From a virus, in UHGV virus genome UHGV-0171543: DNA of 19,658 bases; one strand, 5' to 3'. Below, one piece after another: positions 7,305 through 9,720 of this stretch. The position numbers and the translations under genes are program-made. Position 1 is the first letter of the stretch, and each line of letters begins with the position of its first letter. The notes below the pieces were generated by a model that was given only the letters and a program-made list of their open reading frames with translations, did not search any database and had not been told where the DNA came from.

Positions 7305-7368
7305 TTCTTACTATTTCCATAGGTAAATAATCACTAATACTCATCTTTCGATGAGTGCTTAATTAGTT

Positions 7369-7402
7369 ACCGCGTTGTCGGCGGTGCAGATTGATAAAGA
7401 GC
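7369..7402 (-). promoter_or_regulatory. nutR-like site: boxA plus P22-type boxB hairpin
   Basis: In the rightward transcript, CGCTCTTTATCA (boxA-like) is followed by ACCGCCGACAACGCGGT (hairpin with GACAA loop). A second hairpin ACTCATC-GAAA-GATGAGT lies at 7338..7355. Confidence 0.6.
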
Positions 7403-7410
7403 GGTGTTAC

Positions 7411-7611
7411 TTATGCAGTTGTTTTTTTGTTGCTTGGGAAGGGCTTTATTTCTTCCGCATAAACGCTTCCATCAGCGTTTATAGTTAAAAAAATCTTTCG
7501 GCCTGCATGAATGGCCTTGTTGATCGCGCTTTGATATACGCCGAGATCTTTAGCCGTCTTGGTTTGACCAAAGCGCATTGCATAATCTTTCAGGGTTATG
7601 CGTTGTTCCAT
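7411..7611 (-). CDS. cro: Cro repressor (lambda-type)
   Basis: 66-aa [69 protein letters not shown], matching lambda Cro as recalled. Divergent from cI across the operator region. Confidence 0.97.
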
Positions 7612-7637
7612 ACAACCTCCTTAGTACATGCAATCAT

Positions 7638-7705
7638 TATCACCGCTAGAGGTAAAATAGTCAACACGCACGGTGTTAGATATTTATCCCTTGCGGTGAT
7701 AGATT
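7638..7705. promoter_or_regulatory. oR1-oR2-oR3 operators with divergent pR and pRM promoters
   Basis: 17-bp sites TATCACCGCTAGAGGTA (7638..7654), CAACACGCACGGTGTTA (7662..7678), TATCCCTTGCGGTGATA (7685..7701). pR -35/-10 on the minus strand (AGTCAA 7659..7664, ATTATC 7637..7642). pRM -35 TAGATA and -10 TAGATT on the + strand. cI starts at the first ATG, as for the leaderless lambda cI mRNA. Confidence 0.9.
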
Positions 7706-7711
7706 TAACGT

Positions 7712-8425
7712 ATGAGCGCAAAAAAGAAACCGTTAACACAAGAGCAGCTTGAGGACGCACGTCGTCTTAAAGCTATTTATGAAAAAAAGAAAAATGAACT
7801 TGGCTTATCTCAGGAATCTGTCGCAGACAAGATGGGGATGGGGCAGTCAGGTGTTGGAGCTTTATTTAATGGCGTCAATGCATTAAATGCTTATAACGCT
7901 GCATTGCTTGCAAAAATTCTCAACGTTAGCGTTGAAGAATTTAGCCCTTCAATCGCCAGAGAAATCTACGAGATGTATGAAGCGGTTAGTATGCAGCCAT
8001 CACTCAGAAGTGAGTATGAGTACCCTGTTTTTTCTCATGTTCAGGCCGGGATGTTCTCGCCTGAGCTTAGAACCTTTACCAAAGGTGATGCGGAGAGATG
8101 GGTAAGCACAACCAAAAAAGCCAGTGATTCTGCATTCTGGCTTGAGGTTGAAGGCAACTCAATGACAGCTCCGGCAGGATCGAAACCAAGCTTTCCTGAT
8201 GGAATGTTAATCTTGGTTGACCCTGAACAACCTGTTGATCCTGGTGATTTCTGTATCGCTAGACTTGGTGGTGATGAATTCACATTCAAAAAACTGATCA
8301 AAGATAGTGGGCAAGTGTTTTTGCAACCACTTAACCCGCAGTTTCCAATCATCCCATGCAATGAGAACTGCAACATTGTAGGCAAGGTTATCGCCAGTCA
8401 ATGGCCTGAAGAGACGTTTGGATAA
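7712..8425 (+). CDS. cI: CI repressor (lambda immunity type, LexA-like autocleaving C-terminal domain)
   Basis: 237-aa ORF. The recognition region [21 protein letters not shown] and the overall sequence match lambda cI as recalled, with about a dozen substitutions. Ends PEETFG. Confidence 0.97.
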
Positions 8426-8432
8426 CACGTAA

Positions 8433-8870
8433 ATGATTAAAGAACGTATTTCTTATATCATTCCGATTGCGATGGATGAAGGCAACCCCGTAACTCCAGT
8501 TCTTATCTATGAAATGGATAAAGACTCCCATGAAGTGGATCTGTCATTTGGCGCTTTTTTTATCGGCCTTAAGGCTACAAAAAAATATTCCATAGGCATT
8601 GAGGTTTTCAATGCTCAAGAAATACCGATACCAATTGACACAAAACTGTACTCCAACCATAAGTTTTTTACGGTAGCAGAAGCCAACGATGGAGAAACCA
8701 TCGTATCAACTTCTATGAGAATTAACTTCCCAAGGGTGAAAATTATCAAGCCTGGGATATTCGAAGTTAGAGCATCACTGGTTAATCCTGAGAAAGGCGA
8801 AGTAATTGATGTAAAAAGTTCGTTTTTTGACGTGAAGATAACAGGATCAGTTCGCGATGAGTTTAGATAA
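8433..8870 (+). CDS. Hypothetical protein A of a two-gene cassette at the rexA position (unknown function)
   Basis: 145-aa ORF starting 7 nt after the cI stop, same strand. No TM segment and no motif I recognise. Confidence 0.7.
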   Translation: MIKERISYIIPIAMDEGNPVTPVLIYEMDKDSHEVDLSFGAFFIGLKATKKYSIGIEVFNAQEIPIPIDTKLYSNHKFFTVAEANDGETIVSTSMRINFPRVKIIKPGIFEVRASLVNPEKGEVIDVKSSFFDVKITGSVRDEFR

Positions 8871-9228
8871 CAAGGTTGCTCAGCTTCGTCCAAATCAAAA
8901 CATATCTCGCCCAATTGGACACTATTACACTGATGATGCATACTCACGGCATGGTGGAGGAAACGGCGGAGGTAACATGCTTGAGGCTAGAGTTGCAAAG
9001 CTAGAGTCTGATGTTGAATACATCAAGCGCGATCTCGCTGAGGTAAAGTCAGATATAAAATCTGTTGATTCTCGTCTGTCAGGTATTGAGACAAGCATTA
9101 GCTCAGCAAAAACCACCATTAAGGCATCTGCGGTCGTTGTCAGTTTCGTGTTCGCATTTTGCGCCTACATTTTTGGAAGTTATGTTTCCAAAATCCTTGA
9201 TGCCTTAAACGGACTCATTCTTAAGTAA
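8857..9228 (+). CDS. Hypothetical membrane protein B of the cassette: Gly-rich linker, amphipathic coiled coil, single C-terminal TM helix
   Basis: 123-aa ORF overlapping gene A by 14 nt. An alternative start at ATG 8977 is preceded by GGAGGT and would give 84 aa. Heptad-like segment LEARVAKLESDVEYIKRDLAEVKSDIKSV, then hydrophobic AVVVSFVFAFCAYIFGSYV near the C-terminus. Confidence 0.7.
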   Translation: MSLDNKVAQLRPNQNISRPIGHYYTDDAYSRHGGGNGGGNMLEARVAKLESDVEYIKRDLAEVKSDIKSVDSRLSGIETSISSAKTTIKASAVVVSFVFAFCAYIFGSYVSKILDALNGLILK

Positions 9229-9235
9229 CACACAA

Positions 9236-9261
9236 CCCGGCCTCAGTGCCGGGTTTTCTTT
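9236..9261 (+). terminator. Rho-independent terminator closing the cI-cassette operon
   Basis: CCCGGC-CTCAGT-GCCGGG stem-loop followed by TTTTCTTT, 8 nt after the gene B stop. Confidence 0.6.
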
Positions 9262-9413
9262 GCCTCTCGATCCCCCTTCCCAACAACACATAACCATTTG
9301 TATTTATTGGAAAACTAATAGATAAAACTTGCTAAACAGTGCAATTCTGATCCCTCACCTACCTAACAATTCACCCCCTGCAAAAAATAAATCCATATAA
9401 AAAACATACAGAT

Positions 9414-9476
9414 AACCATCTGCGGTGATAAATTATCTCTGGCGGTGTTGACATAAATACCACTAGCGGTGATACT
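9414..9476 (+). promoter_or_regulatory. oL3-oL2-oL1 operators and pL promoter
   Basis: AACCATCTGCGGTGATA (9414..9430), TATCTCTGGCGGTGTTG (9434..9450), TACCACTAGCGGTGATA (9458..9474). pL -35 TTGACA (9448..9453) and -10 GATACT (9471..9476) with 17-bp spacing. Near-identical to lambda pL as recalled. Confidence 0.85.
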
Positions 9477-9521
9477 AAACACATCAGCAGGACGCTGGAA
9501 GCCAAACGGAACAGATTGGCA

Positions 9522-9556
9522 TGCTCTTTAACTTCGATGGGGCGCTGACAAAGCGC
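9522..9556 (+). promoter_or_regulatory. nutL-like site: boxA and P22-type boxB
   Basis: TGCTCTTTAAC (boxA-like, 9522..9532) followed by GCGCTGACAAAGCGC (9542..9556, 4-bp stem with GACAA-containing loop), in the pL leader upstream of N. Confidence 0.65.
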
Positions 9557-9720
9557 AAACAGATACCAAACGAGATGGGTTTGGGATTTGATGAATGTGC
9601 AGGTCGATGCACTAACGCTTAGCGGTGAGCACCTGCCTTTGGGGCAGGATGGGTAGCCGCAATCAGGAGATCGACACCTGACATCAAATCACCAAAGCCA
9701 TTTCACATGAGGAAAACATC

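Follow-up and report, generated by a model that had tools for sequence, protein, structure and literature searches.

Sequence evidence for a lambda-type repressor switch joined to P22-type N and nut sites in a lambdoid prophage region

In the laboratory hybrids lambda imm434, imm21 and immP22, a whole immunity region has been swapped as one unit between lambdoid genomes that are otherwise homologous; in lambda imm434, the end points lie close to where the pL transcript starts and where cro ends. For such hybrids, Botstein and Herskowitz (1974) is cited in PMC11893012. According to GenBank annotation and to works citing the study that it stems from, phages mEp234, HK106, HK544 and HK244 (EF120455-EF120461; Degnan et al. 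2007, Mol Microbiol 64:232) carry lambda-type cI, cro and OL/OR, together with variable cargo between cI and t_imm. The mEp234 entry (EF120460) annotates lambda-type operators alongside a non-lambda N and non-lambda nut sites and thus provides a precedent for the arrangement described below. In Salmonella, the P22-like phages L and P22, which have non-lambda repressors, share the gp24 N-terminus and the boxB sites but differ in immunity, such that antitermination and immunity modules assort independently (PMC8022706).

Here, we analysed a 19,658-nt stretch of viral DNA (‘the window’), which runs as the reverse complement of the usual lambda map. Judging from sequence comparison, its prophage region joins a lambda-type repressor switch to a P22-type N and the corresponding RNA target sites, a hybrid that represents ordinary, textbook lambdoid mosaicism, already known and with published precedents. 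The assortment is of the same kind as that between phages L and P22, but concerns lambda-type immunity in an Escherichia-like prophage. The window resembles the mEp234 group in cI, cro, OL/OR and the presence of variable cargo between cI and t_imm and, like mEp234 and HK106, has non-lambda N and nut sites; in those two phages, however, N is of the HK97 type (127 aa, 43% identical) and comes with a leader and a nutR of its own. We read the early regulatory centre of this lambdoid prophage as two independently exchangeable modules, with a probability of roughly 0.9. The first would be the lambda-immunity cassette. The second would be the flanking DNA, in which nutR and cII lie at one end of the cassette and nutL, N and sieB at the opposite end; it would belong to the P22 antitermination-specificity class.

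The cassette, ~2.07 kb long (about 7405/7417 to 9481), is made up of cro, OR, cI, two cargo ORFs, t_imm, OL and pL; its DNA identity to lambda amounts to 91-93%. The cI repressor (7712-8425, plus strand; Pfam HTH_3 and Peptidase_S24) matches lambda cI at 225 of 237 residues (95%; 12 residues differ) and retains the recognition helix QSGVGALFN of the helix-turn-helix, the lysines of the N-terminal arm and the Ala-Gly cleavage site. Cro (7411-7611, minus strand; Pfam Cro PF09048, E = 2.5e-34) differs from its lambda counterpart at a single position (65/66 identical, 98%). Three 17-bp operators with lambda sequence and spacing are present at each of OR (OR1, 7638-7654; OR2, 7662-7678; OR3, 7685-7701) and OL (OL3, 9414-9430; OL2, 9434-9450; OL1, 9458-9474), overlapping pL, pR and pRM. 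OR2, OR3, OL2 and OL3 have the lambda sequence, and OR1 and OL1 carry one change each, CCAG to CTAG, the OR1 variant being shared with mEp234. The original prediction that the operators and the cI recognition helix are lambda-like was thus upheld by alignment to lambda. Both pL (9448-9476, plus strand; TTGACA-17-GATACT) and pR (7664-7636, minus strand) show lambda hexamers at 17-nt spacing, and the hexamers of pRM were read from the sequence as TAGATA (7677-7682) and TAGATT (7700-7705) on the plus strand. A t_imm-like intrinsic terminator (9234-9255, plus strand) corresponds to the annotated Timm of mEp234, and the stretch containing it (9234-9495) is 90.5% identical to lambda. Across repressor, Cro and operators, the immunity type reads as that of lambda, and the identical recognition helix and near-identical operators suggest lambda immunity specificity. 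Given the single changes in OR1 and OL1 and the 12 divergent cI residues, the quantitative behaviour of the switch may differ from that of lambda.

The position held by rexA-rexB in lambda is occupied by two overlapping ORFs (145 aa and 123 aa; 8433-9228, plus strand), which are the cargo of the immunity cassette. They fall into phrog_5893 and phrog_6136, both PHROGs without assigned function, and a PADLOC search with the two ORFs returned no family at a meaningful score. Both are found in the prophages of Escherichia coli MS15236 and FHI_NMBU_03, and they are missing or truncated in other lambda-immunity contigs. This replacement of rexAB also bears on a trivial origin of the lambda segment. 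Lambda cI, pL and pR are common vector parts, and a cI/pL/pR expression cassette, for instance, could have become attached to a natural prophage sequence. A vector-derived segment would, however, be ~100% identical to lambda rather than 91-93% and would not carry two non-lambda ORFs; moreover, mEp234 and other wild lambda-immunity phages are colinear with the segment, which recurs in wild E. coli of humans, pigs and birds. The divergence from lambda refutes vector contamination, to which we give practically no credence.

Downstream of pL, the window encodes a 102-aa N antiterminator, predicted to be of the P22 gp24 specificity type (9721-10029, plus strand; Pfam N_peptide PF25694 over its full length, E = 4e-40). 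Overall, 70 of 102 residues (69%) are identical to P22 gp24, with 40/42 identities over the N-terminus—the part to which gp24 specificity has been ascribed in phage L (PMC8022706)—and divergence in the middle (residues 43-80). The arginine-rich motif, GNAKTRRHERRRKLAIERD, is unchanged relative to P22 gp24, as the original prediction had it, and matches the P22 peptide of the solved complex 1A4T, whose N peptide and boxB RNA sequences are quoted in PMC11480772. A PDB sequence search with the N protein gave no match, the peptide in the solved P22 complex being too short for a scoring hit.

In both nut sites, boxA precedes boxB. On the left, the boxA UGCUCUUUAAC (9522-9532, plus strand), assigned by alignment, is followed by the boxB GCGCUGACAAAGCGC (9542-9556, plus strand), which is identical to the P22 site at 15 of 15 positions and equals the 15-mer RNA of 1A4T as quoted in PMC11480772. 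On the right, the boxA CGCUCUUUAUC (7393-7403, minus strand), likewise aligned, contains the core CGCTCTT that is invariant in lambda, P22, 1H12, Stx2 phage and mEp234; the boxB ACCGCCGACAACGCGGU (7369-7385, minus strand) agrees with the P22 nutR site at all 17 positions. Both identities were established in syntenic alignments with the P22 genome. Each boxB sequence (nutL, GCGCTGACAAAGCGC; nutR, ACCGCCGACAACGCGGT) occurs once in the window, as compared to ~0 matches in shuffled sequence. Folding predicts for either site a 5-bp stem with the anticipated GACAA loop, which in nutR is flanked by C.C. Fold z-scores of the isolated short hairpins are not significant, and the evidence is hence the identity to the P22 sites rather than folding energy. 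The P22 genome (NC_002371) shares with the window an identical gp24 motif and identical boxB sequences in nutL and nutR, as well as the order nutL, 24, sieB, but its c2, cro and operators are unrelated to those of the window and its c1 is not of the window’s cII type. The unchanged arginine-rich motif and the GACAA-loop boxB hairpins, identical to their P22 equivalents, point to a P22-type antitermination specificity of N and nut.

Alignment to lambda and P22 located both transitions as short shared sequences. The pL transcript opens with the left mosaic joint, CATCAGCAGGACGC (9482-9495, plus strand), a 14-nt sequence that lambda, P22, 1H12, mEp234 and the window share without change. Lambda homology stops at 9495, whereas homology to P22 and 1H12 begins at 9482; at the latter position, homology also resumes to two loci (L028 and L031) that combine the N of the window with another repressor. 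The right joint (7395-7416) extends from the cro stop codon through the nutR boxA, with lambda homology covering 7397-8421, P22 homology 7367-7416 and 1H12 homology 6965-7416, and with homology to L028 and L031 stopping at 7404; mEp234 matches the window from the cro end through boxA. As the nutR boxA lies inside this shared sequence, boxB alone can be placed clearly on the P22-type side. A natural recombinant with junctions between pL and nutL and between cro and nutR had been proposed beforehand. The switches of homology at both joints and their recurrence in other genomes support such a mosaic, and alignment placed both junctions within the proposed intervals and mapped them more tightly. 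The left interval itself had been overestimated at roughly 240 nt: about 60 nt separate the pL start from the nutL boxB, and it is the N start codon that lies ~240 nt from the pL start.

We searched for the same arrangement elsewhere. Among 5,426 complete E. coli genomes, BLAST identified at least 11 that span the left joint; strain MS15236 is 99.2% identical to the window over 6965-9716, and FHI_NMBU_03 shows 96.4% identity. At least 17 IMG/VR contigs carry the hybrid, with pattern matches to the left joint in 10 contigs and to the right joint in 16. The exact left-joint pattern had no match in a one-genome-per-species collection, none of the isolated phages in INPHARED spans the left pL/nutL joint, and the same holds for the deposited wild lambda-immunity isolates. 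The hybrid is therefore seen only as prophage or contig sequence and not as a demonstrated viable phage.

These occurrences speak to the integrity of the assembly. In principle, an assembler could have merged two co-resident lambdoid prophages, the first with lambda immunity and the second with a P22-type N, at short shared sequences; the joints are indeed short exact repeats common to many lambdoid phages, and the window is 100% identical to a scaffold from a short-read metagenome (L030). Yet both joints, with the same order of parts, are present in the independent complete chromosomes of MS15236 and FHI_NMBU_03, and several NCBI isolate assemblies contain them as well, as do many IMG/VR contigs whose flanks and cargo differ. 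Recurrence in closed genomes effectively refutes an assembly chimera, and we regard its chance as very small.

Across lambda-immunity contigs, at least four N/nut types occur, and in every lambda-immunity locus examined the type of nutL equals that of nutR. The P22-type pair was found in 14 complete loci in addition to the window and two prophages of E. coli, a third type in three loci, an HK97-type pair in mEp234 and the lambda-type pair in lambda. This pattern is relevant to the notion that the mosaic is genuine but does not function as described, the prophage being cryptic or its N having shifted to another or a less strict boxB specificity, in which case ‘P22-type’ would denote ancestry only. 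The divergent central third of N, its 69% overall identity to gp24 and the absence of the left junction from the INPHARED isolates are in keeping with that notion. All ORFs and sites are nevertheless intact, and the arginine-rich motif and both boxB sequences are not merely unchanged relative to P22 but conserved across ~20 independent loci while the adjoining leader sequence varies. In addition, nutL and nutR always co-vary with the type of N, as expected under selection for function, and in phage L the specificity of gp24 has been assigned to its N-terminal part (PMC8022706). We thus consider a non-functional mosaic quite improbable and favour the reading of two functional, exchangeable modules.

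With respect to parentage, a direct recombinant of lambda and P22 was ruled out, as the segments are not near-identical to either phage and cII is of neither type. DNA of the N/nut module is 73% identical to P22 but 91-96% identical to Escherichia phage 1H12 (NC_049947) and Stx2a-converting phages (e.g. LC616031), with which the window has both cassette flanks in common (96-98% from cII to nutR, 91-95% from nutL through N, in part up to sieB; 91-98% across 6965-7416 and 9482-10700). Between the same two joints, these phages harbour unrelated repressor/cro pairs. The flanks are hence not P22 itself, their closest relatives being E. coli lambdoid phages such as 1H12 and the Stx2a phages. The right-hand flank module includes a predicted 99-aa cII-type activator (7005-7304, minus strand; Pfam Phage_CII, E = 6e-35) of the HK97/mEp234/1H12 type, neither lambda cII nor P22 c1; the region 6965-7416 is 95.6% identical to 1H12 at the DNA level, and for cII the lambda match is limited to the 3’ end (6965-7070). 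A putative pRE (7282-7314, plus strand), consisting of a CII-binding repeat TTGC-N6-TTGT (7282-7295) and a -10 element TACTAT (7309-7314), was assigned by positional correspondence to the annotated mEp234 pRE (EF120460) and by reading the sequence; its transcript would cross the right joint and express cI.

The exact N protein of the window adjoins the lambda-type cassette in four loci (L029, L030, L032 and L033) and a different repressor/cro pair in L028 and L031. A lambda-type cassette in a backbone with already matched N, nutL and nutR is more economical than N and nut sites swapped into lambda, although the comparisons do not separate entry of the cassette into the backbone from transfer of the flanks onto the cassette. 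Unlike the laboratory hybrids, which were made by crosses, the exchange would here be natural, with the lambda region as the probable inserted block. Most likely, the arrangement originated when homologous recombination exchanged the immunity cassette at two short sequences conserved in lambdoid phages: the 14 nt with which the pL transcript begins, and the cro stop codon together with the nutR boxA. The invariant joints may be kept partly as recombination linkers, with cassettes circulating among backbones of at least four N/nut specificities and N never parted from its two nut sites. We deem this rather unlikely; alternatively, the roles of CATCAGCAGGACGC and the cro-stop/boxA sequence in transcription initiation and Nus-factor binding would by themselves account for their conservation.

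In a lysogen, cI bound at OL and OR would repress pL and pR, and during lytic growth Cro would work at the same operators. After derepression, transcription from the lambda-type pL and pR would cross the joints into P22-type nutL and nutR RNA. N would bind both GACAA-loop boxB hairpins via its P22-type arginine-rich motif and, together with host Nus factors at boxA, would allow RNA polymerase to resist terminators. Because the switch acts on operators in DNA and N on hairpins in RNA, the two subsystems should need no mutual match; matching would be required only among N, nutL and nutR, which are matched here. The region is a neat example from nature of how the modular theory views lambdoid phage evolution: the repressor/operator switch and N/nut antitermination assort independently of each other, and crossovers fall at short conserved sequences within transcription units. 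In practice, it predicts lambda-type superinfection immunity and P22-type antitermination specificity for the prophage and serves as a reminder that a lambda-like immunity region does not imply a lambda-like N; its significance beyond annotation is small.

An Rfam gathering scan of the whole window returned two tRNAs and nothing else, with no family for the nut sites or the N leader. The 253-nt leader of N is nonetheless predicted to be highly structured (MFE -90.9 kcal/mol, z = -5.65), with a long-range helix between 9572-9593 and 9682-9704 (structured element 9572-9704, plus strand) closing a variable centre. The closing helix is likewise predicted for the leaders of P22 and 1H12, where its extensions differ yet are mutually complementary.

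The window is oriented as the reverse complement of the standard lambda map, and the order of its parts was derived from sequence and ORF reading together with protein-family scans. A cII-type gene (7005-7304), nutR boxB (7369-7385), nutR boxA (7393-7403) and cro (7411-7611), all on the minus strand, are followed by OR1, OR2 and OR3 (7638-7701), cI (7712-8425, plus strand), two overlapping plus-strand ORFs of unknown function (8433-9228) and OL3, OL2 and OL1 (9414-9474). A t_imm-like terminator (9234-9255), pL (9448-9476), nutL boxA (9522-9532), nutL boxB (9542-9556) and N (9721-10029) lie on the plus strand, and sieB (10045-10626) on the minus strand. 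The whole window is a lambdoid prophage arm, with genes for an O-like protein, a DnaB-type helicase, a Rad52/Erf-like protein, an SSB and the P22-type anti-RecBCD protein Abc2, an integrase gene at the right end and two tRNAs toward the left end. These adjacent Thr-TGT and Asn-GTT genes (1034-1109 and 1115-1189, minus strand) occupy the early-right/late side of the prophage.

As originally predicted, the immunity switch is of lambda type. The products of cI and cro are identical to their lambda counterparts at 225/237 and 65/66 positions, respectively, with the same cI recognition helix; four of the six operators match lambda exactly, and pL and pR keep the lambda hexamers. OR1 (7638-7654) and OL1 (9458-9474) each carry one substitution, the same CCAG-to-CTAG change, which adjoins the central base pair in the non-consensus half-site and might tune the affinity of repressor or Cro. 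In mEp234 (a wild lambda-immunity phage with an HK97-type N; EF120460), OR1 but not OL1 has CTAG, and the reverse holds in loci L011, L013 and L017; varying independently in the two operators among wild lambda-immunity loci, it is a common polymorphism.

The predicted P22-type specificity of N and boxB was likewise borne out. Window N and P22 gp24 share 69% identity overall and 40/42 residues at the N-terminus, and the arginine-rich motif of N, GNAKTRRHERRRKLAIERD, is unchanged. Syntenic alignments showed both boxB sequences, each occurring once in the window and above chance expectation, to equal the P22 genome sites exactly; that of nutL, GCGCTGACAAAGCGC, matches in full the 15-mer in the solved P22 N-peptide/boxB complex (quoted in PMC11480772). 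At nutL boxA, the first base is polymorphic (T or G) among relatives. In the window the site reads TGCTCTTTAAC, the boxA consensus of the E. coli rrn operons; it is CGCTCTTTAAC in P22 and GGCTCTTTAAC in the E. coli lambdoid phage 1H12 (NC_049947).

To locate the joints between the two types of DNA, we combined BLAST against lambda and P22 with multiple alignments. Matches to lambda covered 7397-8421 (92.8%) and 9234-9495 (90.5%), and matches to P22 covered 7367-7416 (88%) and 9482-10300 (73%). The left switch falls within CATCAGCAGGACGC (9482-9495), at the beginning of the pL transcript, a stretch invariant in the window, lambda, P22, 1H12 and mEp234. The right switch lies at 7395-7416, from the last cro codon and stop (GCATAA) to the boxA core CGCTCTT. 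Relative to L028 and L031, contigs with an identical N and another repressor, homology stops at 7404 and restarts at 9482; together, these limits define a lambda-type cassette of ~2.07 kb. Both joints are inside transcription units, such that the pL, pR and putative pRE transcripts must each cross one. The junctions thus sit between pL and nutL and between cro and nutR, as anticipated, but their flanks are not P22 DNA, and the “roughly 240 nt” assigned to the pL-nutL distance in fact reaches the N start codon, with boxB only ~60 nt from the pL start.

The INPHARED collection contains no isolated phage with the left joint; among 5,426 complete E. coli genomes, the joint is present in at least 11. 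Gene order as in the window was found in MS15236 (99.2% identity over 6965-9716) and FHI_NMBU_03 (96.4% over 6963-10025). Exact-pattern scans of IMG/VR returned the left joint in 10 contigs and the right joint in 16, and segment-by-segment BLAST revealed at least 17 of these contigs to combine lambda-type cro/cI with P22-type nutR, nutL and N, with variable cargo after cI. The exact window N protein occurs on 15 contigs; among the six places shown, four have a lambda-type cassette and two a different repressor/cro. Two of the former are 100% identical to the window, namely the ENA metagenome scaffold OLMM19-1_SAMN07501313_METAG-scaffold_317 (19,566 bp) over 6721-13029 and a Logan assembly of SRR5963258 over 7011-11616; the window was probably derived from that sample or from a prophage nearly identical to it. 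An assembly chimera or vector contamination, either of which might create such a hybrid, is excluded because the hybrid recurs in closed genomes and its lambda-type DNA differs from lambda by 7-9%.

While its specificity elements are P22-like, the N/nut module has its nearest relatives in E. coli lambdoid phages. Identity between the window and 1H12 is 90.7% across 9482-10700 and 95.6% across 6965-7416. For Stx2a-converting phages, the corresponding figures are 95.5% in the leader plus the 5′ two-thirds of N and 97.8% in cII-nutR. The window cII is of the HK97/mEp234/1H12 type. 1H12 and the Stx2a-converting phages share both joints with the window, but enclose unrelated repressor/cro pairs. 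The simplest description is a lambda-type immunity cassette within a backbone already holding matched N, nutL and nutR.

In every lambda-immunity locus examined, the nutL and nutR boxB are of the same type and accompanied by the corresponding N, with no mismatched pair among them: lambda-type in lambda, HK97-type in mEp234, and P22-type in the window, two E. coli prophages and the 14 IMG/VR contigs holding both sites. The IMG/VR contigs L010, L012 and L013, which pair lambda-type cro/cI/operators with a ~100-aa N (arginine-rich motif DNxRNRRRARRQAQRE), have a third type, CCCGCCGAAATGCGGG, at nutL as well as nutR. Matched pairs are consistent with cassette-wise exchange or with selection that keeps N/nut sets cognate. 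The leaders of these three contigs have the same sequence as the window as far as boxA and differ from boxB onward, which indicates a further mosaic joint between boxA and boxB.

Beyond the identities, positions and recurrence observed directly, established lambda and P22 biology suggests how the hybrid would operate. cI and Cro would bind the lambda-type operators and control pL and pR; upon derepression, transcripts would bear P22-type nut RNA, whose boxB the N arginine-rich motif would bind, and N with Nus factors at boxA would cause antitermination. Since the switch recognizes DNA and N recognizes RNA, the modules would be orthogonal and freely recombinable. That the system has drifted or become non-functional is disfavored by the intact ORFs and by the strict conservation of motif and boxB in ~20 loci, while the adjoining leader sequence varies.

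Laboratory imm434, imm21 and immP22 hybrids are classical analogues. Annotated GenBank records already exist for wild lambda-immunity phages whose N is not of the lambda type (EF120455-61; Degnan et al. 2007). Phages L and P22 have gp24 specificity and boxB in common and differ in immunity (PMC8022706), and the epsilon34 paper describes the shuffling of several N and repressor specificities among P22-like phages (PMC2629481). Our literature search found no paper naming lambda-type immunity with P22-type N as this exact pairing, but many public genomes contain it, and events of this kind are textbook knowledge.

Between nutR boxB and cII, and directly after the former, minus-strand RNA forms a hairpin, CUCAUC-GAAA-GAUGAG (7341-7356), carried by the pR transcript and antisense in the putative pRE transcript; it shows a compensatory double change (CCCAUC...GAUGGG) in loci L021 and L027 and loop variants in L007 and L014, and may be a piece of a tR1-like signal. 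The N leader has strong secondary structure (z = -5.65) and resembles the RNase III-processed lambda N leader. Its long-range helix (9572-9593 with 9682-9704) closes a variable central insert, with three different, each self-complementary, extensions in the window, 1H12-type and P22 leaders, and the N start codon lies within a small conserved hairpin, CAUGA...UCAUG (9706-9723). In the relatives L006 (from E. coli MS15236; ~3916-4077 of that locus), L008 and L024, an insertion between leader and N encodes a small hydrophobic peptide, MLEIITNPILGGAIITFAIGIGFTIWSEVDDWMWERKNK, and looks like a moron placed at the N start.

The two ORFs downstream of cI (8433-8870 and 8857-9228; 145 and 123 aa; phrog_5893 and phrog_6136) fill the rexA-rexB position, which makes their expression in the lysogen probable. 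Some lambda-immunity contigs carry them, and in others they are missing or truncated. They are candidate exclusion or defense cargo; neither matched a PADLOC defense family, and the 123-aa product has a weak XhlA/coiled-coil match. Within cI, the C-terminal half (S24 peptidase and oligomerization; 8015-8428) shares 86% DNA identity with positions 2242-2655 of L028/L031, which encode the corresponding half of a heteroimmune 231-aa repressor; the N-terminal DNA-binding halves of the two repressors are unrelated. The repressor gene thus contains an intragenic mosaic joint.
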